64,000 nucleotides of DNA from an uncultured Gammaproteobacteria bacterium (GTDB taxonomy: Bacteria; Patescibacteriota; Patescibacteriia; PEXW01). The translations under genes and the position numbers were made by a program. Where the stretch lies: positions 19,505 to 83,504 of the forward strand of contig CAZAMC010000003.1 in NCBI GenBank assembly GCA_964486505.1. The letters are read 5' to 3'. This document shows positions 30,421-55,250 of the stretch, one piece after another; the stretch's first letter is position 1, and every line of letters begins with the position of its first letter. Below the pieces are notes generated by a model. It was not told the DNA's origin. It saw only the letters and a program-made list of their open reading frames with translations, and did no database searches.

Positions 30421-30424
<4 letters not shown>

Positions 30425-32337
30425 GAAATTGGGCAGTACCCTTCTTCCGGTCCCAAGAAGGACGGCTGGGTGAGAATGTCGTAGGAGTCAAACGTCGTCG
30501 TCCGGTTTATCTGGCAAAAGTTGAAGCCCCCACCACACTGCGCACTCGCATCACAGAGAATTGTGGGGTCATTACTACACTGACCAAAGCCTCCAGAAAA
30601 GTTAGACTCGGTGTTCGCGGGGCTCCGAATAATGAGGAAGCGCGTCGTCACACCCGGGTTGACCGTAATGGGTGTAGGGAGGATGCAGCTACTCGCCGCG
30701 CCGCCATTGAAGGGCTGAATTGTCTGCTCTTGCGCCTTCAGGCTAAGCGACGAGGCATCGGACTGCGTATCGTAGTTGAAGAAGAAAGTAGGACTCGCGC
30801 CACCATTTTCGATGTAGTTCACCTTCACTGTGCGGTTAAACTTCCCCCGGATACGAACGTAATAGTTACACGGCCCAATAGTGCAGTCGGCAAAAGGGGC
30901 ATCGGGCACCACGACGCCAAACTTGTGGGAATTTTGGCCATATGCCGCATTGGTATTGTACTCCGTGAACCCACATTCCACGCTCTGGGGCACATTCCCG
31001 ACAATAGTCTGGAGGCACTTGAAATCAATTGACTGCGTGTCGGTGGTTGTGCCACCGGGGTTAAGCCACAGCTTATTTGCGCCACCAGCCACGCCGTTAC
31101 AGTACGTACTCGTGCTAGCGAAATCGGCGCCGCAATGAACACCTTGCCAATTCTTCCCCTCATGGTTTGGCCCAATAAGTTGGCAGAGCCTGGGCGCGCC
31201 TGGACAAAAGGTGACTTGGTTGACGCCGTAGTAGGTCGTGCACCAATTACGCCCATTGCCATTGCAATCATCCCATTGACCTTGGGCATTCAATTCTGGT
31301 TCACTGGGATTTATGTTTGCCTCAAATTGATAGGGCCCAAAGGTTTTCACATCTTCAGAAACTGATAACTCAATGCTCTTCTCGAGCGTCCGCTCGCTGA
31401 AGATGACAAAGTCGAAGAGCGAGGAAAGCGGCAGCGACCAAGGAAAGGTGGCGACGAGGGCTTGTTTCTGGTTTTTCCCAGAACTCACCGATTTCAACCG
31501 GATCTGGCTGGTGGGTTTGGGGTTCAGGTAGGCATTGAAATTCTTAACGTCCCCGTTCCCGCCCGTGGTTGGCTTCAAGGGAGTAATGCGGATGCGGAAA
31601 CCGGCTAGCGTTGAGGAAAGGGTCGGCTCAAAAGCGGGGTAAAACTGCGTCAAGGGGATCTGCGCACCTTTACCGCCACTCTCGGGAAGCGTGCAGGTGC
31701 TGGAACTCGAAAAATTGGTAAATGAAACCAACACTCGCTGTGAACGAGAGCTCTCTAACCGGGAATTCCACGCAATCCACGTAACTTCCAGCACTTCATC
31801 ATTCGCCCCATCATTGCTCTCCGCGTACACGCAGAGCGTGGGCGCATTGAAGTCTACTGGCGCCCCGGCAACGTTGAGTGAGTCGTCGACGTCGTACATT
31901 TCGACATACACACTCTGGTTCTCAGGTAACTCCGGAATCGTTTCCCCCACGCTCGTCTGGTCGGTAGAGCTCACAAGCTTTGTATCCCCGGTGGGGAAAA
32001 ACGCTTGATTTTCGGCAACGATGATATTTGGGTGCCCACCCTCGCCGACCGGTAGTTCCAGGTCGCGGACTTTCGTGAGAGCGCCAGCCAGGGTTTCACT
32101 GGTCTTCAGCAGTTGCACGGCGTGCAGCCCCTGTTCCAAGCCCGATTCCGCTGCGTAGTACCCTTCGTGCGTGTTGGAAACGACTTCATTAATGCGAACC
32201 TGGGTGACAACCACGGTGCTCACGGTAATGCCAATCGCTACAACAGCCGACATAATCAGCACTGCCAGAATCATGGTTATGCCCCGTTGTTTCTTCCCGA
32301 CTCGGCTAATTCGCATAACGGTTGAACTTATCGGCAT
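30421..32337 (-). CDS. PilX-like large minor pilin / pilus tip protein with Cys-rich C-terminal domain
   Basis: N-terminus KKQRGITMILAVLIMSAVVAIG...EGYYAAESGLEQGL resembles the PilX_N domain. 638 aa, 20+ Cys. Last gene of the minor-pilin operon. Confidence 0.55.
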
Positions 32338-33079
32338 TCTTAAAAACCCGGCTGGCTATGGTCGTCTGGAACGTCTGGCTCACGGTCTGCTGGCCCCCAA
32401 GCCGACTAATGTGCATGCTAAAGGTCACCCGGGGGTGGAATGGGTAGAAGTCATCGCCCACGTCGGTAGTATCGTAGCTGAACTTCTGCGGCGTACAGTA
32501 ACAAGTAGCGCCCTTTGTGAACTGGCACTCACTCGTGACGGGATTCAAGCATAACGTGCCCCAACGACATCCCAAATCGTCAGTGCAGACGTCAGGCACC
32601 TGGGCTGCGTACGGATCTTCGGACGGCGCGACGGCAAAAGTCAAATTGCTCACGGTGAGTACGCTGGGCGTAACGCTCGACCATGAAGAAGCGAAGCTTA
32701 CGTCATCACACGCCGTCGTTTCGGCTACCGGGAGCGTGAGTTTTTCGACGACACTGTTCTGAAGCCGGTACCGAACCTGACGATTGAGCGCGTCAACAAT
32801 GACCAGGCAGTTCTTTCCGGTGCCGTCCAAAGGCGCAAAAAGTTTTGTCCGTTCCAGGGGGAACTGGGTTTTGTAGTACGCGTAATCTACAACACCTTCG
32901 CGCAGCTGGTCCGCAATTTCTTCAATGAGCGCCCGAGCGTCGCTCTGCAGCTCCTGCTGTGAAACAGTACGACGCTGCTGCTGAACGTAGAAGACGAATA
33001 AATTCACGGCCAGTAACGATGCAATACTAAACACTCCGAGGGTAACCACTACTTCAATGAGGGTAAAGCCACGACGCAT
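32306..33079 (-). CDS. Type IV minor pilin (PilW-like), prepilin leader MRRG|FTLIEVVV
   Basis: Class III signal G-FTLIE with E+5. Confidence 0.65.
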   Translation of the reverse strand: MRRGFTLIEVVVTLGVFSIASLLAVNLFVFYVQQQRRTVSQQELQSDARALIEEIADQLREGVVDYAYYKTQFPLERTKLFAPLDGTGKNCLVIVDALNRQVRYRLQNSVVEKLTLPVAETTACDDVSFASSWSSVTPSVLTVSNLTFAVAPSEDPYAAQVPDVCTDDLGCRWGTLCLNPVTSECQFTKGATCYCTPQKFSYDTTDVGDDFYPFHPRVTFSMHISRLGGQQTVSQTFQTTIASRVFKNADKFNRYAN

Positions 33080-33083
33080 AACC

Positions 33084-34238
33084 TTATATGTTAATCCAGT
33101 CGTAGAGGTACTCTTGGTAGCTCACCCGGGTCCGGCTCGTGGGCGTGGGCCAGCGCACTTCGCTGGTCACCAGCACGCCCTCCTTCACTGCCTCAATGTT
33201 GTTCAGCCACCCTTTCACATACCGCGCATGGTCGTAGCAGTTTCCGGCGGAATTTTGGTCCATGACCCACTCCACGTATGGCCCGGTGCCATTCTCCCGG
33301 CCTTTGCAGACCGACTGGAACGTAACCACCCGGTAAAATTTTGTTGGCTGGGCGCCCACCAAACCGCTCACGTTCTGGGTAAACGTACCGTTCACCTCAT
33401 AGACCTGTGAGCTGGCAACATTATCCCAGGCTTCTTGCAGGGTGTAGTTGCCGGTGTCCAGAGCCGTGGACGACGGTGCGGTGAAAAACTTCAACGTCGA
33501 TGATGGAGTCGTTACAGTTCCGGACGGGAAAAGGGCAATGGTAGGATACCCCGCCTGGTAATTGAACGAATTCAAGAACATTTCAGAAATCAAGAAAGAC
33601 AGGTCACCAATGTCGGGCCGCGCTGGACTTGAGTTACTGAAGTTACAGGTCGTCTTCTGTATAGTAGAGCCATCCCAGTACGGTAGGTGCCCAGTATTGT
33701 TGTTGTCACATCCCGGGGGGAGAATCGTTAGGTTTATGTAGAGGTACTCAATGAGCGTTTGGACGTCACACATAATTGCGTCTTCATTCCCTTGGTGTAC
33801 ATCATCACTCACTCCCGTGCACATAGCCTGGGTGTTCGGGTCGGAAGCGTACTTGCCACAGCCTTCACGGTCGTAGAATTTGCACTGCCCACTGGCGTCA
33901 ATATCACCAAGGTCGTATTTGTCTTTGTAATCAACGCCGCCCAACGTTGCACTCTTCTGTACTTTCGCCGCCAGGTACTTGTCCCACGCGCCCCCCGCAA
34001 ACTCTACAGCACTCAACGCCCCCGCGTTGCGGTGAGCGTACGCGAGTTCCATCCCCTCCCGGGCCAAGTTCTGGGCAACAATGCGGTCTTGGTTTACACG
34101 GCCCAAGTTAATGGTGGTCAGTATGAGCACCAGGCTGCCCACTACCCCAATCATAAGTACGCCAATAGCCAGCACGCCTTCCAGGAGCGACGTTCCGCGG
34201 GGGAACTTAGTTCGGTGTAGCAAAGTTGCAATCCGCAT
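33084..34238 (-). CDS. Type IV minor pilin (PilV-like), GTSLLEGVLAIGVLMIG
   Basis: PilV-type N-terminal motif with E+5. Confidence 0.6.
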   Translation of the reverse strand: MRIATLLHRTKFPRGTSLLEGVLAIGVLMIGVVGSLVLILTTINLGRVNQDRIVAQNLAREGMELAYAHRNAGALSAVEFAGGAWDKYLAAKVQKSATLGGVDYKDKYDLGDIDASGQCKFYDREGCGKYASDPNTQAMCTGVSDDVHQGNEDAIMCDVQTLIEYLYINLTILPPGCDNNNTGHLPYWDGSTIQKTTCNFSNSSPARPDIGDLSFLISEMFLNSFNYQAGYPTIALFPSGTVTTPSSTLKFFTAPSSTALDTGNYTLQEAWDNVASSQVYEVNGTFTQNVSGLVGAQPTKFYRVVTFQSVCKGRENGTGPYVEWVMDQNSAGNCYDHARYVKGWLNNIEAVKEGVLVTSEVRWPTPTSRTRVSYQEYLYDWINI

Positions 34239-35244
34239 CGATGTACTGGGTAACGACGTTGCTATTTGTGACTTTTACCACGCGGCAACTCGCCGAGGGC
34301 CGATCGGTGAGCCCAAACATAATTTCAACTGCTGTTACCGGATTCGCCAAATCAAGAGCTGGGGTCACGGCCGCGGTAAGGGGCGCGTACTCAGCCACGT
34401 TATCGGAAAGCTTCACTTCGCGGCCATCGGGCGCAAGGTAACGTATCGTGGCCGCAATCGGGTACGGTTGGCCACCCATTGTGCCAAGTAAATCTGTCGC
34501 GGCCGAATACGGATTCGGAACTTGCTTCGACTGCCAAGGCGAACTCTCGCCACAGCTCACCCAATTCTTGGTCATCCCCGGGGGGTTCTTCGCCCAGGTC
34601 ACCCGTACATTCTGAATCTTGGCATGGGAATCCACAGTGTACTTGGCTACTTGGGTATCCCCCTTCGGGAGCGTTTGAAACAGCAGTGTCGCAATTCCAT
34701 CGGGTGGGAAAATACCATTCGAGTCGTTCATGCCATACTCGGGTGGGAAACACGCGCCGAGTGCTCCGGATCCACTCCCAAAACAATTCGTTCGATCGGC
34801 GACGTAGTAGTAACTCTGGCGCGCATTCGAAATGAGCGCGTAATCGGTACTCGCCGAACTATTGTAGCAACTGAATGCCAACATAAAACCTTTCGGCGGC
34901 ACAGGACTCGCCGCCTCACACGCGGTTCCAATTTTTGGGCAGCAGTGACTGCTGCACCCGGAAGTGCCACTATCGGCGGCACACTTCCCGTTCACCAGCG
35001 CACACGTACACGGCAGGCCGGTTCGATGGTAGCAGAAAAACTGCTGCGTCCCTGCTGCAGTTTGCTCTTGCACAAGCCGCAGCCGACTCATGAACAACGA
35101 TGACTCACGTTGCAGTAGGCTGTCCTGATTTGCGCGTTGGTAGTTGGCGGTTACCAGCACAATGAGAATGCCGCTGATGAGGAGGGTGAGGCTTATTTCA
35201 ATGAGGGTGAAACCCCGAGGGTGCTTACGAGGATTCATAGACAT
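34207..35244 (-). CDS. Type IV minor pilin (FimT/GspH-like), ...PRG|FTLIEISLTLL
   Basis: Prepilin signal; LRLVQEQT motif shared with the next paralog. Start at MSMNPRK or MNPRK is uncertain. Confidence 0.6.
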   Translation of the reverse strand: MSMNPRKHPRGFTLIEISLTLLISGILIVLVTANYQRANQDSLLQRESSLFMSRLRLVQEQTAAGTQQFFCYHRTGLPCTCALVNGKCAADSGTSGCSSHCCPKIGTACEAASPVPPKGFMLAFSCYNSSASTDYALISNARQSYYYVADRTNCFGSGSGALGACFPPEYGMNDSNGIFPPDGIATLLFQTLPKGDTQVAKYTVDSHAKIQNVRVTWAKNPPGMTKNWVSCGESSPWQSKQVPNPYSAATDLLGTMGGQPYPIAATIRYLAPDGREVKLSDNVAEYAPLTAAVTPALDLANPVTAVEIMFGLTDRPSASCRVVKVTNSNVVTQYIDADCNFATPN

Positions 35245-35248
35245 ACGC

Positions 35249-36178
35249 TTAGCTAGCGAAGCTGCAGTTCTCATCAATGTGCTGGGAAATGACGCCTTCT
35301 TTCGTCATCCGGATTACCCGGCAGTCAATTACCCGGTTCTTCAGGCCCAGCATGATGTCCACCTGTGACCAGCTCTTCCCGGTAGTGCCAATGACACCGT
35401 CTACTGCTGCAGTATCGCTGATATTGTCATTCAGCACCACTGCCCGGCCGCCCGGAGGGAGGAAGCGAATGAAAGCTTGCAACGGGTAGTCCGGTGGCAC
35501 GTCATCAGCATGAACGGGCTCTAGCTTCCCATTCCAGGGTGAACCACCCAGGTATGCGCCATTGCGGCAGCGAACCTTTGCCGCACTCTGGGTTTCGGTT
35601 AACTGGATATCAACGATGCTCACTTTTGCATCCAGGTCATGCTGCGCGGTTTGGGGGTCACCCTTGGACCGCGAGAGAATCTCGTAGACGCTGGCAATGC
35701 CATCGGCGGCATTCGTTGTCCACTGCGACCCATCACCGAACACGGGCGGGTAGCACAGGGCCCCGGTCGAACCGCACTGCACGAAGTCGGCCACCGTAAC
35801 GTAGCGGCTTGCCCCGAGCGCACTGGTGGCAAGCTGTGATGCAGGGTACGCCGGTTGGGGGCAAGTGAAGAGCACGCCGTACCCTCCGGCAGGTGTGGTC
35901 TCGGCTTGGCAGGTACCGGGTGAGCACTGGCTATCGGCTGTGCAGAGTGTGCCGGTATCTTCCGTACAGGTGCGAATAGTCGTTCCAGCCGACGTTTGCT
36001 CCTGCGCCAGCCGGATATCGGCTACCAGCAGCGCCGCCTGGCGAACCAGTAAACTATCGTCACTCCCCCGGTTGTACCGTGCGAGGATGAGCCCCAGCAG
36101 TACCGAAAAAATCCCCATCGCGACGAGCACCTCGACGAGTGAGAAGCCTTGATGTTGGAGTTGAGGTTGAGCGGGCAT
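35249..36178 (-). CDS. Type IV minor pilin (FimT/GspH-like paralog), ...HQG|FSLVEVLVAMG
   Basis: Start reset to MPAQPQLQHQGFSLVEV (cat at 36176-36178), 8 nt after the pilD stop. IRLAQEQT motif. Confidence 0.6.
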   Translation of the reverse strand: MPAQPQLQHQGFSLVEVLVAMGIFSVLLGLILARYNRGSDDSLLVRQAALLVADIRLAQEQTSAGTTIRTCTEDTGTLCTADSQCSPGTCQAETTPAGGYGVLFTCPQPAYPASQLATSALGASRYVTVADFVQCGSTGALCYPPVFGDGSQWTTNAADGIASVYEILSRSKGDPQTAQHDLDAKVSIVDIQLTETQSAAKVRCRNGAYLGGSPWNGKLEPVHADDVPPDYPLQAFIRFLPPGGRAVVLNDNISDTAAVDGVIGTTGKSWSQVDIMLGLKNRVIDCRVIRMTKEGVISQHIDENCSFAS

Positions 36179-36186
36179 ATTTCGCG

Positions 36187-36993
36187 CTACCACCCAAGTG
36201 CGCGTTGGTACCAGGATACCACGCTGGGACCGAAAAGGAAGGTCAGCACACTCGCAAATGCTAGAAAACTTCCAAAAGGAATAGCCGTCTTGAAGGTCAC
36301 TCGCCCGCGCAGGAGGAGCACCACGGCCCACACACTGCCCACTACATAGGCAACAAAAAGTGCAGCGAGGGTGTAGGGCAAGCCCAAGAAGATGCCCATG
36401 AGCGCGCCCAGCCGGATGTCGCCCGATCCCACCCACCGGCCTTTCGACACGGCCCACTGTGCCGCAAACCAACCGGCGCCAGCGGCCGCGGCCAACACAA
36501 TAGTCCCCAGCTCTCTGAGCATACCGGACGCTACCGCTTCGCTGCCAAAGTGCGTCACCCGCAGAATTTGCACGATGCCAAGAACCACCATGCCCGATAC
36601 ACTGACGCGATCGGGGACAATGCCAAACTTTCCATCAATAACCCCCAAGACCACAAACCACGCTCCCCCAAGAATGCCCAGGAGCGCGAGCACACTCACC
36701 CCAAACTGCCATGCGGTGAGACCAAAAATCGCTGCCGTGAGAAGTTCTACCGCAAGGTATTGGGCGCTAATAGATTTGTGACAGTACCGGCACCGCCCGC
36801 GCAGGGCTAGATAACTAAAGACGGGTATGAGGTCGAGGACATGGAGTACATGCCGGCAGCGAGGACAGCGCGAACGATTCTTCACGCCAACCACCCGCCG
36901 GCCCTTGGGGATGCGGAGAATGAGGACGTTCAAAAAACTCCCAACGAGAGCGCCGAGGATTACTGCCACGGTTATGGTAAACCCGGCCGGCAT
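36187..36993 (-). CDS. pilD: Prepilin peptidase (A24 family)
   Basis: N-terminal CPRC...CRYC zinc motif; multi-TM; catalytic Asp regions VIDGKFGIVPD and GSGD. Confidence 0.85.
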   Translation of the reverse strand: MPAGFTITVAVILGALVGSFLNVLILRIPKGRRVVGVKNRSRCPRCRHVLHVLDLIPVFSYLALRGRCRYCHKSISAQYLAVELLTAAIFGLTAWQFGVSVLALLGILGGAWFVVLGVIDGKFGIVPDRVSVSGMVVLGIVQILRVTHFGSEAVASGMLRELGTIVLAAAAGAGWFAAQWAVSKGRWVGSGDIRLGALMGIFLGLPYTLAALFVAYVVGSVWAVVLLLRGRVTFKTAIPFGSFLAFASVLTFLFGPSVVSWYQRALGW

Positions 36994-36998
36994 GGCCG

Positions 36999-37415
36999 TT
37001 AGCGAATTCCCGCCGGAGTGAGCGTGTGGCGACCAGCCGCTAGGCCCGTGGCGCCCTTTTCCAACGTGAATGCCACTTCGTAGCTTGTCGCATCGGGCAC
37101 CTTGGTCACCAGGTAATCGCCGCCCCGCGGATCTCGCAGTGTACTAATGGTAGAAAAATCCTGCGCTAAGTTGCAGGTGCGAACGGGAACATTGGCTGTG
37201 CTACACCCATTCTGCGCCGCACCCGCGTAGCTGGCCGTGCGATTGTACAGCAGCAAAAACCCAACCTGGAGCCGAGCCATATCAGCTACGCGTTGGGCAT
37301 CGCGCGACTTAGCTCGCTCTGCACTAATGAGCCGAACGCCAATGAAGAGCACCACGAGCACGATGAGTGCCGCCACTACCATGCTGATCATGGAAACCCC
37401 CCGAGGCTGCTGCAT
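36999..37415 (-). CDS. Pilin-like protein lacking Glu+5 (MQQPRG|VSMISMVVAALIVLVV)
   Basis: Pilin-like hydrophobic N-helix and ...AERAKSRDAQRVADMARLQ...; TGCTATACT -10 lies 8 nt upstream of ATG. Confidence 0.5.
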   Translation of the reverse strand: MQQPRGVSMISMVVAALIVLVVLFIGVRLISAERAKSRDAQRVADMARLQVGFLLLYNRTASYAGAAQNGCSTANVPVRTCNLAQDFSTISTLRDPRGGDYLVTKVPDATSYEVAFTLEKGATGLAAGRHTLTPAGIR

Positions 37416-39696: not shown

Positions 39697-39702
39697 GGCC
39701 AC

Positions 39703-39711: not shown

Positions 39712-39736
39712 AAAGAGCGCCTCGTGAGCGCTCTTT
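39712..39736 (-). terminator. Hairpin AAAGAGCGC-N7-GCGCTCTTT after pilin A1
   Basis: Perfect 9-bp stem followed by a T-rich run on the minus strand. Confidence 0.5.
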
Positions 39737-40414: not shown

Positions 40415-40423
40415 AGTATAGCA
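40415..40423 (-). promoter_or_regulatory. Extended -10 TGCTATACT upstream of pilin A1 (long leader)
   Basis: Same 9-mer as the leaderless promoters. Confidence 0.4.
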
Positions 40424-40452
40424 GTTTTTCGCCAACCTGACCAGCACCAACG

Positions 40453-46155: not shown

Positions 46156-46752
46156 TTACTGCTGGAGGTAGTAGCTACGGAAAGAAAAGCTGTACGACGT
46201 GGGGGTAGACCCGCTGGAAGGCGTGTGTGAAATTGCCGTGAGATCCAAGAGGGGGGCTTGCCGGGATACTACATCGAGGAAATTCTTTAATTGGGTATAG
46301 TTCAACTGACCACCCAGAATGACGGAGACGGTAAGGGTGTGAACATTGCTCGCCGTTGCTTGCTCGGCAGTTGAAGCGATAACCGCCCCATCGGCAACGG
46401 ATACCGAGAGGAGCTCCATGCTTGCCTCGCGGGCAAAGGCTTGCATTTGCCGGAAAATACCAGGCACATCTTTGCCCTTAGGCAACACCGCATCCAGGCG
46501 CGCGAGGTCATCGTTCGAGATGGTGCGGAGTTCAGCCCGAAGCGCCTGCAGATCTTTCAGGTATTCCTCTTGCACTTTCAGTGTCTCAAGCTTCTGGTTG
46601 TAATTCAGCCCACCTAATTCTTTCACGGTCCGGTACCGCGGCACAATAATGGTGTAGGCGCCAATGATGAGCACGAGCACGGCAACAACAGCGCCAACTG
46701 CCAAAATGTGGCGGAGGAGGAAGCGGGTAATGCTGGTGAGAGACAAGCGCAT
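46156..46752 (-). CDS. pilO: PilO-like inner-membrane pilus alignment protein
   Basis: N-terminal TM plus coiled coil plus ferredoxin-like C-terminus; position after pilN. Confidence 0.6.
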   Translation of the reverse strand: MRLSLTSITRFLLRHILAVGAVVAVLVLIIGAYTIIVPRYRTVKELGGLNYNQKLETLKVQEEYLKDLQALRAELRTISNDDLARLDAVLPKGKDVPGIFRQMQAFAREASMELLSVSVADGAVIASTAEQATASNVHTLTVSVILGGQLNYTQLKNFLDVVSRQAPLLDLTAISHTPSSGSTPTSYSFSFRSYYLQQ

Positions 46753-48043: not shown

Positions 48044-49156
48044 CTACGCACTAAGTTGACGGAGACCAAGACCAACGGCCACGGCGAAACGCGGGCCAAT
48101 TTCATTCCATACCGGCTTCAGTTCCACGGGGTACGAAATACGGGCCCAGGGATCACCAATGTAGGTCCGGATGTTGAGGAGTTTTGTGAAGTACTCTGGC
48201 AAATTTGTGAGGAACGCCGACCCACCCGCGAGAATAATTTTATCAATGCTCCGGCCTGTGCCTTGGTTTTGGAACAGGTTCAGCACGTACCGAATTTCGT
48301 TGGTTATTGAATTCACCACGAATTCGATGGCTTTGGGGATGTTGCTATCTGCAGCACCCTGGGTGGAAATGAAGAAGTCCCGCTTGAATTGCTCGGCGCG
48401 ATCATTGCTCACGCGCAACGTACTGGCAATGGTCTTGGTAATTGTGTCGCCCCCAACATCAATAGAGCGCGTAAGCATGGGGATGCCCTCGCTGAACACC
48501 ACAATGTCAGTGGCCACCGCCCCAATGTCCACAATCATGATCGGTGCCCGATCGTGGCCAATGAGTGAACGCTCCAGGGCAAATGCTTCGGTTTCCAGGG
48601 CCACCAGCTGCAAATCAGCGGCTTTGAATATCTCCATGTACCGCTGGACTAGGTTCTTCGGCGCCGCGGTCAGCAACACTTTCATGTCCTTTGTAGCCGC
48701 CTTACTCTCATCCGCTTTCGGCTCGGGTGGCCGAGCAACGTTGGCACCGGCAACTTTTGCGGCCAGCGTGTCGTCCTTCAGCACCTCCCAGTCCAGAATC
48801 ATTTCATCCACAGGCATGGGGACGAACTTCTTCGCCTCCCACTTCACGGCGGACATCAGCTCCTTCTTGGACATCTGCGGCAGCGAGATGATTGAACTGA
48901 ATACCGTAAAGCTCGGCAGCGAGGTTACCGCTAGACGGGAAGTTGTCCGTGACGCTTTCACAACTTGCTTCAGCGCATCTACAATGGCTCGCATTTCGTC
49001 GGCCACGCTGTTCTTCAAGAGGTCGCTGCGCTTCTCGGCAAAACCATAGGTCACCAACGTTGGCCGCCCATTATCTGACCGTAATTCGACAGCCTTAATT
49101 GAAGAGCCGCCAATATCGACGCCGAGGAAACTTTGCTTTGAAGAAAAGAGGGGCAT
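48044..49156 (-). CDS. pilM: PilM (actin-like ATPase)
   Basis: FLGVDIGGSSIKAVEL N-terminal motif; 370 aa. Confidence 0.8.
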   Translation of the reverse strand: MPLFSSKQSFLGVDIGGSSIKAVELRSDNGRPTLVTYGFAEKRSDLLKNSVADEMRAIVDALKQVVKASRTTSRLAVTSLPSFTVFSSIISLPQMSKKELMSAVKWEAKKFVPMPVDEMILDWEVLKDDTLAAKVAGANVARPPEPKADESKAATKDMKVLLTAAPKNLVQRYMEIFKAADLQLVALETEAFALERSLIGHDRAPIMIVDIGAVATDIVVFSEGIPMLTRSIDVGGDTITKTIASTLRVSNDRAEQFKRDFFISTQGAADSNIPKAIEFVVNSITNEIRYVLNLFQNQGTGRSIDKIILAGGSAFLTNLPEYFTKLLNIRTYIGDPWARISYPVELKPVWNEIGPRFAVAVGLGLRQLSA

Positions 49157-49163: not shown

Positions 49164-52100
49164 TTATGGCAATTCTCGGGTAGGATTGGGCAGCGCTTTC
49201 GTTACATCCTCTAGGCCGGGGGGCGGATTCAGGAAGAGCCGCTGGTCAAACGTTACCTGCTCCGCCGGCTCGTCAATCGTGTCGAGTGCGCCCGTGCGGG
49301 TAAAGTTGAACTTCCGGGCAAAGAGGAGGCCTTCAATGGTAAGTGGATTGCACTTCTTATCGGTGCCCCCGCAGAAAGCGGCATCAGCATCGTTCCCAGT
49401 ATCAAAGGCGCCACCACACCCATCGAAGCCGTACTCAGAAGCGGTGCACGCTGCCGATGGAGTATCGGCATTGAGGTCAGGATCTTTTGACGAGTCCCGG
49501 CCGATAACAATGAAGGCGCCGGTAATGCGATTGACCTCTTTCGCAATGCTCACGTTCCCCCGCACTATGAATGCCGCCGCCATAGAATCCCGTATGGAAG
49601 CGGGGGTAACCGCTGCAAGGTCAAGGTCTTTGGTAGGATCTGAGGCAATGATATTATAATGAATTTTTAGATCACCGTCCACTACGAACGTGATGTTCCG
49701 CGGCAAGGTTTGGCCAACTGTATAGGGCATGCGCCACACCCAACGGATAGTAGTGCCTAAGGGGTGATCACTCGCGGTATAGGGGTTCCCGCTTATGGTT
49801 CGTACACCGGTTAACTGATTCCCACTCTTACCGGTGTAGCTCAAGTACTCTTCTTTCCCGCTGCCCGTGCCAAGAATTACGGTGCCAGACAAGGGGTACG
49901 TGGCACTTGGGGTTGGGAAATTGGCTGCTGAGGCCAGCGTGAGCGTGCCCCCAGCGCCATTAATCGCTGCCCGCTGCCCACTGACCGCCACCGTGAGCGT
50001 TGAGGCCGCAATATTGGCCTCATTCGGGTCGTGCCCAATGGTCAAGTCGCCTTGGATGTGCACAACTTGGTTCTCAATAGCATCCAACGGGATGTCCGGA
50101 GGCGAACCACCACCCCCTGGCGGGGTATACGCAAACTGACCCGCCAGCTCATTCACGGTCCAGTCCACGGGCGTTGTGCCATTCTTGGTGGTCACGAAGA
50201 TTTTTTGGCCAAAACGGTTTGTAGAACGTTGGTAATCTTTTGTACCCAGAATGTCATTGTATGGGGCGAGCCCCGTCACATCTTTCGTTAGACCACCAAC
50301 GTCAAGTTTGCCAAGAGCATTGCGGTAGGTGGCGGTTGAGGTCTGTACGGACGGGAAACCAAACGTGTTCGGCGCCGAAGCACTATCACGGCCAAAGAGC
50401 TCGGGCGCAGTAGTGCCCAGCGACCGCGAGCAATCGGTATAATTCCCGTCAAACCCACACGCGCTATCCCCGGCAAGCAAATTCTGGAGGAAATCTATGG
50501 AAGCCGAAGAACCTGGTGATACAGACTGGCCCGACGGGTGCGCCAGTGGTTGCAACGTGCCGTTGGTTTCAATGCGATAGGTACTCACGTAACACGCTTC
50601 ATCCCCGTCGCCGTCACCATCCAAGTCGCGGCCGCAGGACGTTAACCGTTCTCCGGTTAAGCGTTGGGCATCGGGCAATTGGAAATTCCCCGCATCGGCG
50701 CCGCCACCGTTGACGTAAATATTCCCGAAGAGCGTTTCTAACCAGGCATACCCCAAGAAGATGAGCGGGTTGAAACGAATCCACCCGTACTCCCCGCTCC
50801 ACGCCCAACCAGAAAGAAGGTAACCATTCCCCGAATAGTACGCATTCACGCCGTAGTCACCGCCTGCTGCGTATACAGGCGTTCCAATAGAGTAATTCCG
50901 AAGAATGTCATTCGTCACCAAATTCAGTACAGGTTCACCAAAAATATCGGTGCCGATGCTTGAGTAGTAGAAGTACTCTTCGCCGATAATGCCAATTTCA
51001 TTCTTCCCGGTAACGACTGGGTCGGGGAAGGTGCTTGCATCAACAACAGGGAGCTGCGAATTCCCTGAAGCATACGCTCGTCGCAGGGTTGAGGTCTTTG
51101 TGGAATCCCGCCAGTAGCCTTGGAAACGCACCCACCCGCCTTCGGCGTCTCGGCACCGGTACGTGCCGCCCCCAATGTCCTGGTAATTGCAGAGATTCAA
51201 GAAACGCCCCCAACCATTGAGCCGTTGGGACGTCTTGTCGTACTTTAACGTAGGGTCACTCGTCAACACGCTGTTGCGATATGCCTGTCCGGGTGGGTTG
51301 CCGTAGTTGTTGTCATCGGTCAGCGGATCGGCATCACCACAGTTGCCCACGGCCCCGCAGTCGTAGGCGCTATGCAGACGGTTGAAGCTTAAAAAACCAG
51401 CATTACTGGACCAGCCAAATCCGCTCGCGGCGTACGTCATGTCTGTTGGCGTGGGGGAAAAGTTAACAGTGGGCGGAGAATTAACCGGCGCCACCGCAAG
51501 ACTAGTGCCGTACGGTGAGCTCCCCGGTGGCGCGCACGCATCCGTGGACTTTGCATTCGCACAGTTCATTGAGAGCCAACCAAAGTTCGATGACCAGCCG
51601 TAGCCATACACGTTACCCCCCGAATTCGCAGTGAAGGCCAACGCTTGCGCACCCACCCGTTCCCACGCCACAGGTGGTAACCCGCTATTCAAGGTCACGG
51701 CTCCTGAAGTTACCGGTGGCATTATCGGCGAGTATGCCTGCCCCGTAACGCCAGTGCTATCATCAAAGACCGCAGTTGTAGACCAGGTATAGGATGCAGG
51801 GGGGACTTGGTCCTCTTTAAAAATTGCCAATCGGTTGGTGGATAAATCGCGCATGGCTAGGTATGCCGAGTTTCCATGGAAACCCACCACCGGTGCCGCG
51901 TACGTACTTGCCCCAATGTACGGAGAAGCGCCAAAGGTTGCGTGGGCTACGCTGTTTGCCTGCTGGCCAATGATAAGTGGAATAGACATCACGCGCACGT
52001 GGTTCTGGTGCGCTTGGTCCTGTGCGTACGTTGTGGATGTGTTGTCGTGCCCTCCTTCATACGCGATAACCAGCCGAGACGAATCGGTGCCGGTGGGCAG

Positions 52101-53345
52101 CGCTGCTGCGGAAAAGCTAAAAGATAGTGCCCCAATGTTCGGCGCGCCAGAAGTGGGAGAGCACGCGTCCAGCCAAATTGCCGGCTCAACGTTTTTTACC
52201 GTATAGGGAATCCAGGAATTCGCATTCGCTTTATCCGCCATCACCGAAACCTGCATACCCAGTATGTACGGCAAACTTTGATAACAATTAACTACGTCCA
52301 CCGAGAACTCGCGTCCAACAACACGGACGATTGCGGGGGAAGCATCGGTACCTGTGGGCACGAGAATCGTCTGCGCATCACCAGATAAAGGCCAATTGTA
52401 CCGCTTCCAGAACGCCCAGGGGTCATCACCGCTGACAAGTCCATAGTCGGGAACGCCATCAGAATTCGTATCGGTCAGGCTCTTGCCCATGTTGCTCAGC
52501 TGCCAGGTTGGATTCGCAGTGGTGAAGTTATCGGTATAGAAAAGGAAGGTGTAGCCATCGGCACAACTTGTGTGAAAATCCATCACCACCCACAGACGCT
52601 CACCCGCGCCGTACTTCTGGGCCAGCACCGAGGTTGTTGCCGCTCCTTCATACGTGCTGTTACCAGGGCAGTTCCCGAGCTGTGGCCAGGGTCGTACCGA
52701 CGCAGCATAGGGAACGTGGTTGTGCGTGGAAGCGGCGCCCATGACCCATTGCTTGGTGCTTGGATTCCAAGTGAGCTTCTGGACGTGAACACTACCATTG
52801 CCCGCAGTGTCGCCCGTGTACGCCACCCAAATACTGGAGCGATCCCAGCTTTGCGTAACCGTGTAGTCAAGGCGCAGCCGGCTGCCCGTGTTCACCAGAA
52901 GAACGGGGAGGTACTGGGTTGCGCTCTCAATAGCGCGTGACCAGGTGACGCCTTTGTCGCGACTCATTTTAAATTCAATCCGGCAGAGCTTATGGCTGGC
53001 GTCTATAACTGTGCACGCACTATCGTCGTCATTCACATAGGCCACAAAGAAAGCCTCTACCCCGGGCTCTGGCTCCATGTACAGCATCTTGGTTCGCTCC
53101 TGCCGCTCCGGCCGCCACGCGTATACGTTATCGGAAAAAGAAAAGGGGGCTATCTCCCTCTCCCACCCAAAATTTTCGTACGGGGTTGCCGCCTCCGCGT
53201 ATTGAGCTCCACTAACAATTGTCGTAGGGGTGGTAAGTGCCGCCTGCGCTACTCCTGACGTTACAAAAAACCCAATCAGCGAAAACGCCGCAGCCCAGAG
53301 TGAGCCGCGGAACCACTTTGCATTACGCCATGTGCTAACAAGCAT
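49164..53345 (-). CDS. Giant secreted surface protein (~1394 aa) with BNR/Asp-box, GW-aromatic repeats and DxDxDG Ca-binding run
   Basis: Start reset to MLVSTWRNAKWFRGSLWAAAFSLIGFFVTSGVAQA (signal peptide). SRDKGVTW Asp-box. Repeats GWSSNFGWLSMN, GFGWSSNAGFLSFN, NGWGRFLNL, GGWVRFQGYW, GWAWSGEYGWIRFN. DLDGDGDGDE. Confidence 0.6.
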   Translation of the reverse strand: MLVSTWRNAKWFRGSLWAAAFSLIGFFVTSGVAQAALTTPTTIVSGAQYAEAATPYENFGWEREIAPFSFSDNVYAWRPERQERTKMLYMEPEPGVEAFFVAYVNDDDSACTVIDASHKLCRIEFKMSRDKGVTWSRAIESATQYLPVLLVNTGSRLRLDYTVTQSWDRSSIWVAYTGDTAGNGSVHVQKLTWNPSTKQWVMGAASTHNHVPYAASVRPWPQLGNCPGNSTYEGAATTSVLAQKYGAGERLWVVMDFHTSCADGYTFLFYTDNFTTANPTWQLSNMGKSLTDTNSDGVPDYGLVSGDDPWAFWKRYNWPLSGDAQTILVPTGTDASPAIVRVVGREFSVDVVNCYQSLPYILGMQVSVMADKANANSWIPYTVKNVEPAIWLDACSPTSGAPNIGALSFSFSAAALPTGTDSSRLVIAYEGGHDNTSTTYAQDQAHQNHVRVMSIPLIIGQQANSVAHATFGASPYIGASTYAAPVVGFHGNSAYLAMRDLSTNRLAIFKEDQVPPASYTWSTTAVFDDSTGVTGQAYSPIMPPVTSGAVTLNSGLPPVAWERVGAQALAFTANSGGNVYGYGWSSNFGWLSMNCANAKSTDACAPPGSSPYGTSLAVAPVNSPPTVNFSPTPTDMTYAASGFGWSSNAGFLSFNRLHSAYDCGAVGNCGDADPLTDDNNYGNPPGQAYRNSVLTSDPTLKYDKTSQRLNGWGRFLNLCNYQDIGGGTYRCRDAEGGWVRFQGYWRDSTKTSTLRRAYASGNSQLPVVDASTFPDPVVTGKNEIGIIGEEYFYYSSIGTDIFGEPVLNLVTNDILRNYSIGTPVYAAGGDYGVNAYYSGNGYLLSGWAWSGEYGWIRFNPLIFLGYAWLETLFGNIYVNGGGADAGNFQLPDAQRLTGERLTSCGRDLDGDGDGDEACYVSTYRIETNGTLQPLAHPSGQSVSPGSSASIDFLQNLLAGDSACGFDGNYTDCSRSLGTTAPELFGRDSASAPNTFGFPSVQTSTATYRNALGKLDVGGLTKDVTGLAPYNDILGTKDYQRSTNRFGQKIFVTTKNGTTPVDWTVNELAGQFAYTPPGGGGSPPDIPLDAIENQVVHIQGDLTIGHDPNEANIAASTLTVAVSGQRAAINGAGGTLTLASAANFPTPSATYPLSGTVILGTGSGKEEYLSYTGKSGNQLTGVRTISGNPYTASDHPLGTTIRWVWRMPYTVGQTLPRNITFVVDGDLKIHYNIIASDPTKDLDLAAVTPASIRDSMAAAFIVRGNVSIAKEVNRITGAFIVIGRDSSKDPDLNADTPSAACTASEYGFDGCGGAFDTGNDADAAFCGGTDKKCNPLTIEGLLFARKFNFTRTGALDTIDEPAEQVTFDQRLFLNPPPGLEDVTKALPNPTRELP

Positions 53346-53367
53346 GGGAGTGTTGTTTTGTAAAAAT

Positions 53368-53376
53368 ATTGTACCA
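53368..53376 (-). promoter_or_regulatory. Extended -10 TGGTACAAT, 22 nt upstream of the giant-protein ATG
   Basis: Follows the terminator of the upstream adhesin-like gene. Confidence 0.4.
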
Positions 53377-53412
53377 TGAAAAACATAAAAAAGCAAGGGC
53401 TTCAGTTTCACT
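53376..53412 (-). terminator. Rho-independent terminator AAGGGCTTCAG-N5-CTGAAGCCCTT + T6
   Basis: 11-bp stem and T-run on the minus strand after the 602-aa gene. Confidence 0.55.
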
Positions 53413-53441
53413 GAAGCCCTTGGGATACCAAAGTTGTTAAT

Positions 53442-55250
53442 CTAGGTCGTAGGGCCAGTTACGTCTCCACCAATAATGGATCCGCACACACACCCGGAAG
53501 ACGGGGCCGAGTTATAGCACCCGGCTGGGTATGTATCGACCTTGCTTCCAACAGTGCAGGTTATCGTGCCATTGCAACACGAGCGACCGGGCCCACACGG
53601 ACCACCCGCCATACACGTATTCCGCGTAACGACTGGGCGGGTGTAACTTGCGCACTCGTTCGTTGGGCCGGGGCAAGTGGGGTGGAAAAGCCGCATCGTC
53701 TCGGTATAGGTGGTGTTGAACACGTGAACCACGGTGTTCGTCGTATCCGAGCAGTTGGTTCCTGCTGCCGGTGTGATGTCATTGCTCCCGTCCGTTAGCA
53801 GGTCAACGCGGCAGGAAACCCCAGTAATCCCGCCGTAGTTGGTCGAGTCAGTAATGTTCACGAACTGCGTGAGTTCAGACCGCTGCGCTACAGAGAATAT
53901 GGGCCGAAACATATTAATGTTCACGGACTTCGTTGTGCCTGGCGGGCCAACATCATCGCTGATTGTGAGTTTCGGCGACTTCACACCGCTCGTTACACCA
54001 GAAGGGTAGCGCACTGTGGGGTTTGCCACAGTTCCCGCAAAGACAAAGCCTCCGGCGTTCACACAAGTCGCATTCGGGTCTGTGCTCTGGCAATCAACAT
54101 CGTTCAAGGCGTCTTCACCGAAGTCCCAGGCGTACGTAGCGGTGCCGGTAACCGTAACCGCGGAGGTCGTGAAATTGAAGTTGCTTGTATACCCATTCCC
54201 CGTTGGATCAACCGCTAAGGTAAAGTTTGGTGCACCACAGACGGCGGCCTCATCCCGATACCGCAAGCTCACCCGGACTTTCGTATTCGCATTGGCAGTC
54301 TGCAGGTACAGCTTGCCGTAGAACACGCCACTCGAGCATTCACGGTACTCGGCAAAGTTGGTCGCGTCCACGGCGGGACGCCAGAAAATGTTCGGCGCGG
54401 TTGTATCCGCGTCGTACATCACGTCCAGACCAACGATGTGGAACGTATTGTCAGTTGTTATTTGAACGTAGTCGGGGCTTACGCTGTTGGTAAAGTCAAC
54501 AAGCTTCCCTGTGGGCCCAACGTTGCTAACGTCGAAAGTCCGCTCGTAGACACCGCCGGATGGTGATGGGTAGTTTTGGTCACGAATCGAATTCGCCACA
54601 GCGCCCACTGCCGCGCCCCCAACTTGTAACGTCCCCACGATGTTCACATTGCCCGTGAGTGTCGTGGTACCGGCAACCGTTAGGTTCCCTCCACCAATAA
54701 TGTCAACGTTGCCTTGGAACTGCCCGGCAGGCGAACCAAGTGCGTAAATACCGCGACCGCCAACACTCGTGGCTTGAATCGCATCGCCGGTCCCTGCCGT
54801 AGCACTAGCTTGCAGTGCCGCAGCGCCGGTGTCAGTCTTCGCGACAATTGCAAACGTGTCTGTGCTGTAGACATTTATAGCTTGACCAGCTTGCGCGGCT
54901 CGCTGCAATGAGTACGCCACCCCAGGAGCAGGGTCGGGCGTTTCACCCAAGAGGAGGTTCCCCAAAACCTGGAGCTTCTTGTTCGCCGTAGACTGGCCCA
55001 CGTACACCGGTGTCTGCACAACCTGCGCTGTAGTTTTATCACTTGGCGCCAGGAAGAGCGGGCTACTGGTATTACAGCCGCTCGGGCCTGTGGGATCGTT
55101 CGGGTTGCAGGTGGGATCCCGGAATTCCGTAGCAGAGGTCTGCGCGTACACGCGTATTCCAAAACCAGCCACAATGCCAACCATACCGACCAGGACATAC
55201 GTGGCCCAACGTGGCCAAGTGACTGCCGTTGCACGGGTGCTTGTAGGCAT
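53442..55250 (-). CDS. Secreted/anchored adhesin-like protein (602 aa) with beta-helix-like G/T/V-rich repeats and Cys-rich C-terminal domain
   Basis: Start reset to MPTSTRATAVTWPRWATYVLVGMVGIVAGF (cat at 55248-55250). GNLTVAGTTTLTGNVNIVGTLQVGG. C-terminal has more than 14 Cys in 90 aa. Confidence 0.5.
   Translation of the reverse strand: MPTSTRATAVTWPRWATYVLVGMVGIVAGFGIRVYAQTSATEFRDPTCNPNDPTGPSGCNTSSPLFLAPSDKTTAQVVQTPVYVGQSTANKKLQVLGNLLLGETPDPAPGVAYSLQRAAQAGQAINVYSTDTFAIVAKTDTGAAALQASATAGTGDAIQATSVGGRGIYALGSPAGQFQGNVDIIGGGNLTVAGTTTLTGNVNIVGTLQVGGAAVGAVANSIRDQNYPSPSGGVYERTFDVSNVGPTGKLVDFTNSVSPDYVQITTDNTFHIVGLDVMYDADTTAPNIFWRPAVDATNFAEYRECSSGVFYGKLYLQTANANTKVRVSLRYRDEAAVCGAPNFTLAVDPTGNGYTSNFNFTTSAVTVTGTATYAWDFGEDALNDVDCQSTDPNATCVNAGGFVFAGTVANPTVRYPSGVTSGVKSPKLTISDDVGPPGTTKSVNINMFRPIFSVAQRSELTQFVNITDSTNYGGITGVSCRVDLLTDGSNDITPAAGTNCSDTTNTVVHVFNTTYTETMRLFHPTCPGPTNECASYTRPVVTRNTCMAGGPCGPGRSCCNGTITCTVGSKVDTYPAGCYNSAPSSGCVCGSIIGGDVTGPTT

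Follow-up and report, generated by a model that had tools for sequence, protein, structure and literature searches.

A Predicted Secretin-Less Type IV Pilus Locus of Patescibacteria With a Degenerate PilT Homolog and an Extended PilN

Gene Content of the Pilus Locus

We analyzed a 64,000-nucleotide (nt) stretch of DNA from an uncultured bacterium of the Patescibacteriota (GenBank assembly GCA_964486505.1, contig CAZAMC010000003.1, positions 19,505 to 83,504; referred to below as the window) that carries a cluster of genes for a type IV pilus (T4P). The open reading frame (ORF) list combined with profile searches showed that the minus strand from 30421 to 55385 is an unbroken run of 20 tightly packed, co-oriented ORFs. 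The intergenic gaps range from -32 to +48 nt, the exception being a gap of 117 nt ahead of the first pilin gene. An initial annotation of this DNA had counted 19 co-oriented pilus genes. All the parts that it named are present at their places on the minus strand, and its own list adds up to 20. It had placed the end of the locus at 55250, which is the ATG of the first gene (protein A); the ORF itself reaches 55385. The Pfam and NCBIfam searches that it had called for matched PilM, PilB, the PilT-like protein, PilC, PilD, the REC protein, Wzy_C and pilins. The region 30421-55385 is very likely a chromosomal, secretin-less, type IVa-like pilus locus of Patescibacteria (candidate phyla radiation, CPR) that has been inherited vertically. 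The genes for the alignment complex, the motor and the prepilin peptidase are listed below.

48044..49156, minus strand: PilM, actin-like cytoplasmic ring protein (PF11104, PilM_2, 154.4 bits, above cut-off)
46755..48035, minus strand: extended PilN, 426 amino acids (aa) (PF05137, 17.7 bits, cut-off 22.8, together with motif, membrane-spanning segment and position)
46156..46752, minus strand: PilO-like protein (PF04350, 16.6 bits, cut-off 22, together with conserved position)
44968..46152, minus strand: membrane-anchored FN3 protein in the pilP position (membrane-spanning segment, FGxDLFxDxRF, tandem FN3, C-terminal GRxNPF)
43208..44971, minus strand: PilB extension ATPase (T2SSE 435 bits, MshEN N-terminal domain 61 bits, canonical motifs)
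42776..43195, minus strand: REC, single-domain CheY-like receiver (PF00072, 73.7 bits)
41665..42741, minus strand: PilT-family homolog with four degenerate catalytic motifs (T2SSE 78 bits; TIGR01420)
40453..41661, minus strand: PilC platform protein (T2SSF 193.9 bits, in two stretches)
36187..36993, minus strand: PilD prepilin peptidase (A24_N_bact 112.6 bits, Peptidase_A24 32 bits)

Related loci (numbered with an L) were collected by a PilB scan of one genome per GTDB species. Close PilB matches were found in Patescibacteria-type metagenome-assembled genomes (MAGs) alone. PilB identity was 76-91% in five species (L002-L006), 52% in a Kerfeldbacteria MAG (L007), and ∼40-46% in dozens of Paceibacteria, Nomurabacteria and 'Saccharibacteria' MAGs. 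Three more distant loci, L082 (in the complete 1.08-Mb genome CP060223.1), L086 and L087, were reached through homologs of the PilT-like protein.

Degeneration of the PilT Catalytic Motifs

The PilT-like protein scored 304.8 bits on TIGR01420 (cut-off 319.1) and covered model positions 2-342 of 343, i.e., the full length of the model. It also aligned over its full length with Aquifex aeolicus PilT (2EWV, E = 9e-67). Its motifs were compared with those of canonical PilTs from 60+ other Patescibacteria loci, of the PilB of the window and of 2EWV. Walker A reads GPYGSGRTT (canonical GPxGxGKST), the Asp box TIERPIE (canonical TIEDPIE), Walker B VSELED (canonical IGEMRD), and the His box HSGRLVIASMTTD (canonical ETGHLVxSTLHTN), in which TGHLV..LHT has become SGRLV..MTT. 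Lysine is thereby lost from Walker A, aspartate from the Asp box, glycine and arginine from Walker B, and both histidines from the His box. The P-loop is still rich in glycine, Walker B keeps its glutamate (SELED), and an AIRNLIRE-like segment, GLRALVRD, remains recognizable. Like the canonical PilTs (2EWV/2GSZ of Aquifex and 3JVV of Pseudomonas aeruginosa), the protein aligns over its full length and its gene lies between pilB and pilC; unlike them, it has the Walker A lysine, the Asp-box aspartate, GEMRD and both His-box histidines replaced and scores just under the family cut-off. The P-loop mutation pointed out in the initial annotation (GSGRTT) was confirmed, and the loss extends to all four catalytic signatures. 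What the locus holds is a PilT homolog with all four signatures replaced, and no PilT with intact catalytic signatures was found in it. No PilU and no second PilT-like P-loop was found in the locus or in the 64-kb window.

The degenerate PilT is common to L002-L007, L082, L086 and L087, and the PilTs of L008-L081 are canonical. In L007 the P-loop is gone entirely (GTANAEQST). Among the 120 closest database homologs of the degenerate PilT, 97 lack all four signatures, 118 lack at least one, and 2 are canonical. Of 150 representatives taken from an exhaustive HMMER search, 73 are short of at least one catalytic signature and 23 of all four. The substituted residues, such as the P-loop arginine and the arginine in place of the first histidine, are themselves conserved in the family, whose consensus is GSGR ... 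IE[KRQ]P ... SE[LM]E ... S[GS]RLV..MNT. These relatives are annotated as "PilT/PilU family type 4a pilus ATPase" or "twitching motility protein PilT". The ratio of nonsynonymous to synonymous substitution rates (dN/dS) of the degenerate PilT against L002 was 0.033, compared with 0.039 for both PilB and PilM (dS is saturated and the ratios are approximate). The gene appears to be maintained, not decaying, under purifying selection as strong as that on PilB. We consider it likely that the protein keeps the PilT fold and signature and cannot hydrolyze ATP.

Tandem PilT-PilT fusions of 660-1024 aa are numerous among the database proteins (P0012-P0021, P0038 and P0043). A pairing of a dead half with a live half was looked for in these fusions and gave no consistent pattern: most are canonical twice, and just P0038 and P0043 are mixed.

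Motor, Receiver and Peptidase Genes

PilB gave 575 bits on TIGR02538, its best model (cut-off 675), vs. 537 bits on GspE, and its motifs are intact (GPTGSGKST, LEDPVE, VGEIRD and TGHLVFSTLHT). The N-terminus of PilB also carries a sub-threshold MshE-related motif for binding of cyclic di-GMP (22.2 bits, cut-off 38). PilM, PilC and PilD all scored above their profile cut-offs. The REC protein has the complete set of conserved receiver residues (acidic pocket, phospho-acceptor Asp, Thr and Lys; EDD, LLDVVLP, LLT and YLIKA). A REC-only regulator between pilT and pilB had been singled out in the initial annotation; the gene is indeed there, and it is not peculiar to this DNA: a REC gene separates pilB from pilT in 44 of the 74 Patescibacteria loci compared, which makes it a common trait of the superphylum. 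Outside the pilus locus, a 287-aa ORF at 21042-21905 (minus strand) shows weak sensor-histidine-kinase matches in its C-terminal part (NCBIfam, E ∼1e-4) and is a possible candidate partner of the orphan REC protein in the pilus operon.

Extended PilN and the Alignment Complex

PilN starts with MESNINLLP, followed by a proline-rich cytoplasmic linker of ∼220-230 aa, a GLNVNLVPEE motif, a membrane-spanning segment and the PilN core. The proline content is 16% overall and 30% in the linker, which includes four runs of 6-8 prolines; the proline-rich PilN reported earlier is real. Both motifs and the linker are kept in L002-L006, and L007, L082, L086 and L087 have long PilNs too, with an INLL-type N-terminal start. 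The identification of PilN and PilO also rests on topology, the INLLP motif (PilN) and conserved synteny; the PilO counterparts in L082 and L086 match Pfam PilO at a faint or weak level. Wherever PilT is degenerate (nine loci), the gene in the PilN position encodes 343-447 aa. The corresponding gene in 63 loci with canonical PilT has a median length of 210 aa (range 101-295). The association of long PilN with degenerate PilT is a correlation, not proof of coupling. The short part of PilN that lies in the cytoplasm is known to be bound by PilM (PMC4471445). A long flexible tether with two INLLP-type motifs would therefore imply a remodeled cytoplasmic ring.

The FN3 protein belongs to a family whose alignment shows an FGxDLFxDPRF...LxP motif near the membrane-spanning segment. 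The family profile matched FN3 modules of titin (8.4e-11) and fibronectin (1.4e-9). Pfam fn3 matched four of seven family members (best E = 2.2e-9), the FN3 protein of the window alone having no Pfam match. The assignment as an FN3 membrane protein made at the outset holds at the family level on these matches. In L082, L086 and L087 the counterpart is ∼100 aa long, with both end motifs and no FN3. The clade of the window appears to have inserted FN3 modules into a small conserved protein of the pilP position, because the distant counterparts are ∼100 aa long without FN3. Identity with PilP, as suggested by the position and the GRxNPF tail, was not supported, there being no PilP profile match. 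A single-sequence AlphaFold2 model of the FN3 protein was unusable (mean pLDDT, the predicted local distance difference test score, 36.0). The stop codon of its gene overlaps the pilB start by 4 nt.

Secretin and PilP profiles gave no match in the 20 genes of the locus or in their relatives, in agreement with the earlier statement that the locus has no PilQ secretin. The missing PilQ and PilP fit a cell without an outer membrane. As in the Gram-negative PilMNOP complex, the order is pilM-pilN-pilO followed by a gene for a small membrane-tethered protein (in Gram-negatives pilQ comes next), and PilN starts with an INLLP-type motif. Unlike in Gram-negatives, PilN here has a ∼230-aa proline-rich insert and a duplicated motif, and there is no PilQ. 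The fourth-position protein also differs from Gram-negative PilP in being anchored by a membrane-spanning segment, carrying FN3 modules and lacking a PilP-profile match.

Large Secreted Proteins and Transcription Units

Two large secreted proteins are encoded at the head of the locus, with a terminator and a promoter predicted between them.

53442..55250 (ORF to 55385), minus strand: large secreted protein A, 602 aa from the ATG at 55250 (N-terminal signal/anchor VYA↓Q, Cys-rich C-terminus)
49164..53345 (ORF to 53411), minus strand: large secreted protein B, 1393 aa from the ATG at 53345 (Sec signal peptide AQA↓A, motifs, C-terminal domain)
53394..53422, minus strand: predicted intrinsic-terminator hairpin after gene A (13-bp GC-rich stem and T-run)
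53368..53396, minus strand: predicted promoter of the B-pilM operon, extended -10 type (TTGCTT-N15-TGgTACAAT)

The Sec-type signal peptides of A (VYA↓Q) and B (AQA↓A) were called by inspection. Protein A has no Pfam or NCBIfam match. Its homologs were detected in the closest clade alone, upstream of the B homolog in L003, L004 and L005, at 25-31% identity. Protein B contains one BNR-like SxDxGxTW motif in its N-terminal part, three GWxWSxxxGWxxF motifs, and a conserved C-terminal domain of ∼150 aa ending in ...LNPPPGLEDVTKALPNPTR. The family is defined by these last ∼150 residues (ending LNPPPGLxDVxKALPNPTR) and the GWxWSxxxGWxxF motifs. Relatives were gathered by synteny and a purpose-built hidden Markov model (HMM). 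In all loci searched, the HMM of the C-terminal domain together with the GWxWS motif matched solely the gene directly upstream of pilM, namely in L002-L005, L007, L008 and L082-L087. The homologs are 562-1415 aa long, and their N-terminal part varies from nothing to ∼800 residues. The B gene ends 7 nt before pilM, and the spacing is 5-10 nt in close relatives. This constant association favors the 1393-aa protein as a part of the pilus system in the test for unrelated passengers proposed in the initial annotation.

Protein B had no Pfam, NCBIfam or PDB-sequence match (profile search, E <= 10), and five of its relatives had no Pfam match. Word-index homolog searches for protein B returned itself or five proteins; the same type of search worked for the degenerate PilT. 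An AlphaFold2 model of residues 590-1415 built on a six-sequence alignment was unusable (mean pLDDT 36.8). The description of the two giant proteins as adhesin-like has no domain or fold evidence behind it.

The hairpin between A and B is by far the strongest terminator-like site in the region. An equivalent GC-rich hairpin with a T-run lies behind the A homologs in L003, L004 and L005, which also have a promoter at the same site (TTGACT-N15-TGgTA(C/A)AAT). L086 has TTGACT-N15-TGtTAAAAT ahead of its single large protein. Protein B appears to be the first gene of the pilM operon and protein A a separate unit, because a terminator and a conserved promoter lie between them. The picture of two giant Sec-secreted proteins heading the operon stands for B, which is always directly upstream of pilM and shares a conserved promoter with it; A is separately terminated. 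Likewise, the genes do form a supercluster on a single strand, which is not one operon, since the conserved terminator and then the conserved promoter split the 602-aa gene from the 1393-aa gene. At least three transcription units are predicted: the separately terminated protein A; protein B, pilM, the extended pilN, pilO, the FN3 protein gene, pilB, REC, the degenerate pilT and pilC; and, with a promoter-like site of its own, two paralogous pilins, the Wzy_C+TPR gene, a pilin-derived protein without Glu5, pilD and five minor pilins.

Pilins and a Candidate Pilin Glycosylation Enzyme

The features of the third unit, other than pilD, are as follows.

40415..40443, minus strand: promoter-like site before the pilins (TGGTCA-17-TGcTATACT; consensus match alone)
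39751..40257 (ORF to 40335), minus strand: pilin A, 168-aa precursor from the ATG at 40257 (N_methyl 37.7 bits; MTNRKG↓FTLIE; GGAGG ribosome-binding site)
39217..39702, minus strand: pilin B (N_methyl 35.5 bits; RRSG↓FTLIE; 53% identical to pilin A by BLASTP)
37436..39232, minus strand: Wzy_C protein with C-terminal TPR, candidate pilin O-oligosaccharyltransferase (Wzy_C 71.7 bits, TPR_19 37.9 bits)
36999..37415, minus strand: pilin-derived 138-aa protein without Glu5 (PRG↓VSMIS; aligns with the alpha-1 region of pilins)
35249..36178, minus strand: minor pilin 1, 309 aa, QG↓FSLVE (N_methyl 29.5 bits; sub-threshold GspH and GspI)
34207..35244, minus strand: minor pilin 2, RG↓FTLIE (N_methyl 22.6 bits; GspH 29.9 bits, below cut-off)
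33084..34238, minus strand: minor pilin 3, RG↓TSLLE (TIGR02523 PilV 24.4 bits, below cut-off; motif by reading)
32306..33079, minus strand: minor pilin 4, RRG↓FTLIE (N_methyl 25.8 bits)
30421..32337, minus strand: minor pilin-like 5, ∼630 aa, RG↓ITMIL, no Glu5, 18 Cys (resembles GspK/PilX by position and the missing Glu5)

Class III signal peptides (G↓FxxxE) with N_methyl above cut-off were found in five genes. A sixth gene has G↓TSLLE, and two pilin-like genes lack Glu5. Pilin A is the probable major pilin. A hairpin with a T-run lies behind it (∼39712-39736, minus strand), and a second TGcTATACT element then precedes pilin B. The ∼150-nt leader before pilin A folds strongly (-75.5 kcal/mol for the 206 nt of 40250-40455, a value with no shuffled baseline). 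The promoter-like site and the trailing hairpin would fit a highly expressed major pilin.

Wzy_C in the multi-pass membrane protein behind pilin B is PF04932 (71.7 bits, cut-off 31.7), and the TPR part best matches the TPR domain of human OGT. The ORF overlaps the pilin B stop by 16 nt, and the adjacency is kept in L002, L005 and L006. Both the domains of the candidate glycosylase described earlier and its adjacency to a pilin gene were confirmed in this way. O-oligosaccharyltransferases of the Wzy_C family are often encoded beside their targets (PMC3643930, PMC9829042), and the protein resembles TfpO/PglL/WaaL in having a Wzy_C membrane domain and a gene directly behind a pilin gene (PMC9829042, PMC3643930). 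P. aeruginosa TfpW is a multi-pass membrane protein encoded directly after pilA, with a C-terminal TPR that has been likened to human OGT (bioRxiv 10.1101/2020.04.19.049825), and the protein of the window shares a C-terminal TPR of this kind. Unlike either, it unites in one protein the catalytic family to which TfpO belongs and a TPR tail as in TfpW. The pilin genes of L087 include instead a GT2 glycosyltransferase, a TPR protein and a methyltransferase. Pilin modification looks like a recurrent theme, because L087 carries different modification-type genes among its pilins.

The Glu5-less pilin-like gene precedes pilD in L002, L004, L005, L006, L082, L086 and L087. The L082 member keeps G↓LGLIE, and the clade of the window has G↓VSMIS. 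The profile of this 138-aa family gave a weak match to Geobacter PilA-N (1e-3). Minor pilins 1 and 2 are paralogs (32% identity). Minor pilin-like 5 has no Pfam or NCBIfam profile match, and weak homologs of it end the minor-pilin run in L007 and L082. The labels FimT/GspH, PilV, PilW and PilX used for these genes in the initial annotation rest on sub-threshold N-terminal matches and gene order; the presence of five minor pilin genes stands.

Conservation and Genomic Setting

By tblastn with all 20 proteins, L002-L006 keep the complete order wherever the contigs reach: A, B, pilM, pilN, pilO, FN3, pilB, REC, pilT, pilC, two pilins, Wzy_C+TPR, the Glu5-less pilin-like gene, pilD and the minor pilins. 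In L082, L086 and L087, one to three large secreted proteins are followed by pilM, a long pilN, pilO and the ∼100-aa gene, and then by pilB, REC, pilT, pilC, pilins, a pilin-like gene of 139-144 aa, pilD and four minor pilins. The neighborhood comparison that had been proposed along with the initial annotation thereby gave the full order in five species and the core in three distant loci.

The window has LemA and an M48 peptidase on the head-side flank (55848-57366, plus strand) and a Metallophos phosphoesterase and LigA on the tail-side flank (27508-30424). These flanks recur in two of the three distant loci (LemA and LigA in L086, Metallophos and LigA in L082); for L087 both flanks fall outside the stretch fetched. 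L083 likewise has M48 with LemA beside its pilus locus. The position of the locus in the chromosome appears to be conserved too, and the locus is best read as an old, vertically inherited trait of a broad lineage, not a special assembly in one genome. We consider it lineage-typical and vertically inherited because the order, the core and the flanks recur in related and distant Patescibacteria. The combination of features had been presented as peculiar and undescribed. The same order, degenerate PilT, long PilN, REC and flanks recur in distant lineages, which makes the combination the norm of the lineage; the components flagged as non-canonical are non-canonical nevertheless.

At the operon head of L083 (8410-9588 and 527-919), a 1431-aa protein and the protein B homolog are separated by an AAA/DUF4143 ATPase gene and a small ORF, with a PDDEXK_3 gene close by. 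This looks like an insertion of mobile or defense-type genes.

A ribosomal protein supercluster occupies positions 1-17000 of the window on the minus strand (S7, EF-G, EF-Tu, L23, L2, L5, S5, L15, SecY, adenylate kinase (Adk) and methionine aminopeptidase (Map)). The window is core chromosome because this supercluster with EF-G and EF-Tu fills its first 17 kb. Four tRNA genes (Pro-GGG, Arg-GCG, Ser-GCT and Ser-TGA; 20902-20978, 61933-62009 and 62594-62858) all lie outside the pilus locus, and no signs of integration were found at them. Two adjacent ORFs at 17328-19034 (minus strand) match Peptidase_M50 (site-2 protease), and another frame spans their junction; they may represent one gene that is split or frameshifted, or two genes in tandem.

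60090-60776, plus strand: ComFC/ComF-family gene (DZR_2 double zinc ribbon 23.7 bits, below cut-off; RGFNQS motif; PRT-type motif)

The PRT-type motif of the ComFC-like gene is IILVDDVTTTSTT, in which serine replaces the usual glycine. The gene overlaps by 32 nt the end of the preceding ClpB-like gene (57632-60121). A comFC had been placed 5 kb downstream of the operon. It is actually encoded on the other strand, 4.7 kb outside the operon head; past the operon tail (∼25 kb) we found GatA, Ndk and MetK, and a downstream comFC was rejected.

Discussion

The initial annotation described a complete secretin-less T4P in a CPR-like genome, which is supported; the closest loci are all from Patescibacteria MAGs. 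It had also raised the possibility that the pilin-like genes are pseudopilins of a type II secretion system (T2SS). It is very improbable that the locus encodes a T2SS or a dedicated competence pseudopilus and not a surface pilus. The pilins do score best on GspG, below the cut-off (44.2 vs. 88.85 bits), the minor pilins give sub-threshold GspH, GspI and ComG matches, and a comFC-like gene is 4.7 kb away. However, the locus does not present the T2SS set (GspD, GspC/L/M and GspE, with no PilT): PilM, PilN and PilO stand in place of GspL/GspM, a PilT-family gene is present, no secretin, GspC, GspL or GspM was found in it, and the ATPase fits PilB better than GspE or ComGA. In addition, genuine pili are produced from the homologous locus of Nanosynbacter lyticus TM7x (PMC11623550). 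Our explanation would also accommodate a role of the same pilus in DNA uptake.

The core Patescibacteria T4P set has already been published for TM7x as T4P locus 1, and host-binding and twitching roles of TM7x pili were shown experimentally (PMC11623550). Like that locus, the window has PilM, PilN, PilO, PilB, PilT, PilC and PilD with approximately five pilins in one locus and no secretin; the largest minor pilin of TM7x also carries an extra domain. The TM7x ATPases, by contrast, were reported with well conserved Walker A and B boxes (PMC11623550), whereas the PilT of the window has lost all four motifs. PilN of the Saccharibacteria-labeled locus L008 has 240 aa, vs. 426 aa with two motifs in the window. 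The Wzy_C+TPR gene, the triple-FN3 protein and the large operon-head proteins are not described in the TM7x account.

Could the degenerate PilT be a working retraction ATPase with an arginine-based catalysis, in a conventional retractile type IVa pilus (T4aP)? The P-loop glycines, the Walker B glutamate and GLRALVRD are retained, the replacement residues are conserved in a way that suggests a maintained ligand pocket, and purifying selection is strong. We nevertheless judge this improbable, as four signatures are altered together, the P-loop is wholly lost in other members such as L007, and the canonical signatures are invariant in the PilB of the window and in 60+ other Patescibacteria PilTs. 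A non-catalytic role of PilT has a precedent: in Vibrio cholerae and Acinetobacter baylyi, PilT engineered to lack ATPase activity still allows retraction powered by PilU (PMC6821130, PMC6762196). Those cases likewise show that a PilT hexamer without ATPase activity can be needed for, and support, retraction through a partner. They differ in being engineered point mutants that need PilU, whereas the loss described here is natural, ancient and family-wide, with no PilU in the 64-kb window.

For protein B the closest analogy is PilY1/PilC, in which the C-terminal domain is conserved and the N-terminal domain differs between species (PMC4471445). Protein B is likewise a large, Sec-secreted non-pilin encoded with pilus genes, with a conserved C-terminal domain and a variable N-terminal part. 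Unlike PilY1/PilC, it has no match to a propeller family or any other Pfam family, and its gene lies ahead of pilM, not among the minor pilins; no C-terminal beta-propeller was seen in A, B or five B relatives, none of which is matched by a Pfam family. By this analogy protein B may be a PilY1-like pilus-associated surface or adhesion factor, a reading to which we give somewhat less than even weight. A rather unlikely alternative is a structural part of the machine, which would either build or guard an opening for the pilus in the wall or S-layer, or link the PilNO/FN3 layer to the envelope. It would account for the invariable place of B at the start of the pilM operon, beside the alignment-complex genes and away from the minor pilins, and for the high conservation of its C-terminal domain and extreme C-terminal tail, and the locus offers no secretin or other candidate conduit. 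But the N-terminal two thirds of B are very variable (562-1415 aa), which is typical of surface-exposed binding proteins, and no membrane anchor is visible besides the signal peptide. A little less doubtful is the idea that the large proteins, above all A, are passengers, i.e., ordinary surface proteins encoded beside the pilus genes. Protein A comes with a promoter-like site of its own and a strong terminator conserved in L003-L005, and it is confined to the closest clade among the loci compared. At this position the distant loci encode other large proteins, namely one with a PQQ_2 propeller in L082 and others, 631 and 676 aa long, in L087. Against this, some large secreted protein is found at this position in every lineage examined, and B shares the pilM promoter and lies 5-10 nt from pilM in close relatives.

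The PQQ_2 beta-propeller of L082 is carried by the first large protein ahead of the pilM operon (1-1295; CP060223.1). Propellers are present in TM7x PilX2 and PilY1 as well, a hint that binding modules of this type are a recurring element of pilus loci.

We propose the following working scheme, in which prepilin processing, priming and extension are inferred from established T4aP biology. PilD would cleave prepilins at G↓F(T/S)L(I/V)E, and minor pilins would prime filament assembly. PilB acting on PilC inside a PilMNO scaffold would polymerize pilin A (and B), and the filament would exit through an envelope without a secretin. The Wzy_C+TPR enzyme, judging from its position, may O-glycosylate the adjacent pilin, as do TfpO/PglL and TfpW. 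Protein B would serve as a PilY1-like pilus-associated surface or adhesion factor, or else as an envelope part of the machine. The degenerate PilT may be a non-catalytic hexamer at the base of the machine that acts as a competitor of PilB, an adaptor or a switch, its engagement being controlled by the adjacent CheY-like REC protein and the co-evolved double-motif extension of PilN. Retraction, if any, would be passive or driven by an ATPase encoded elsewhere. Taken together, we put forward tentatively, as a possibility that we think rather unlikely, that a deep Patescibacteria lineage runs its main, perhaps its only, T4P with a naturally dead PilT that has co-evolved with a PilN carrying a proline-rich tether and a second PilM-binding motif, beside a CheY-like protein. 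This set would form a hitherto unrecognized, hydrolysis-independent clutch or switch between extension and passive retraction, and a new family of surface proteins associated with the pilus, with a conserved C-terminal docking domain, would come from the same operon.

Several points weigh against this interpretation. The whole account is sequence-based, including the promoters and terminators on which the proposed transcription units rest; overall, the counts of consensus promoters and terminators were not above those of shuffled controls. The profile scores of PilN (17.7 bits) and PilO (16.6 bits) are both under the Pfam cut-offs. The link between the extended PilN and the degenerate PilT is a correlation alone because the loci are phylogenetically related and not independent. 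Proteins with a Walker A Lys-to-Arg change sometimes still bind nucleotide, and residual activity of the degenerate PilT is possible. The search for a second canonical PilT or PilU covered the 64 kb of the window, part of a contig of ∼217 kb. Functions for proteins A and B are assigned by analogy, as neither protein gave a domain match, a match to a PDB sequence or a usable structural one.

The general system is known, and four of its variant features are undescribed within the searchable (open-access) literature: the loss of the catalytic motifs from the locus PilT throughout a family in a deep lineage, the accompanying proline-rich PilN with its two motifs, the protein family at the head of the pilM operon with its conserved C-terminal domain, and the Wzy_C+TPR hybrid adjoining a pilin. 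In that literature we found no description of PilT degeneracy of this kind, of an extended PilN in CPR, or of a conserved protein ahead of pilM in CPR.

T4P are the best-supported tools by which Patescibacteria find and bind their hosts and probably take DNA from them. How the pili of Patescibacteria are built and retracted is an acknowledged open question (PMC11623550). If it is true that this lineage has swapped its retraction motor for a non-catalytic homolog, then twitching, attachment and DNA uptake would need a different principle, such as passive retraction, a bifunctional PilB or a remote ATPase. Labeling the degenerate family simply as "PilT/PilU ATPase" or "twitching motility protein" will misdirect conclusions on metabolism and lifestyle that are drawn from MAGs. 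The PilN with two motifs offers a concrete and testable way into the organization of the cytoplasmic ring, and the C-terminal domain of protein B may serve as a search key for candidate host-binding proteins across CPR genomes.

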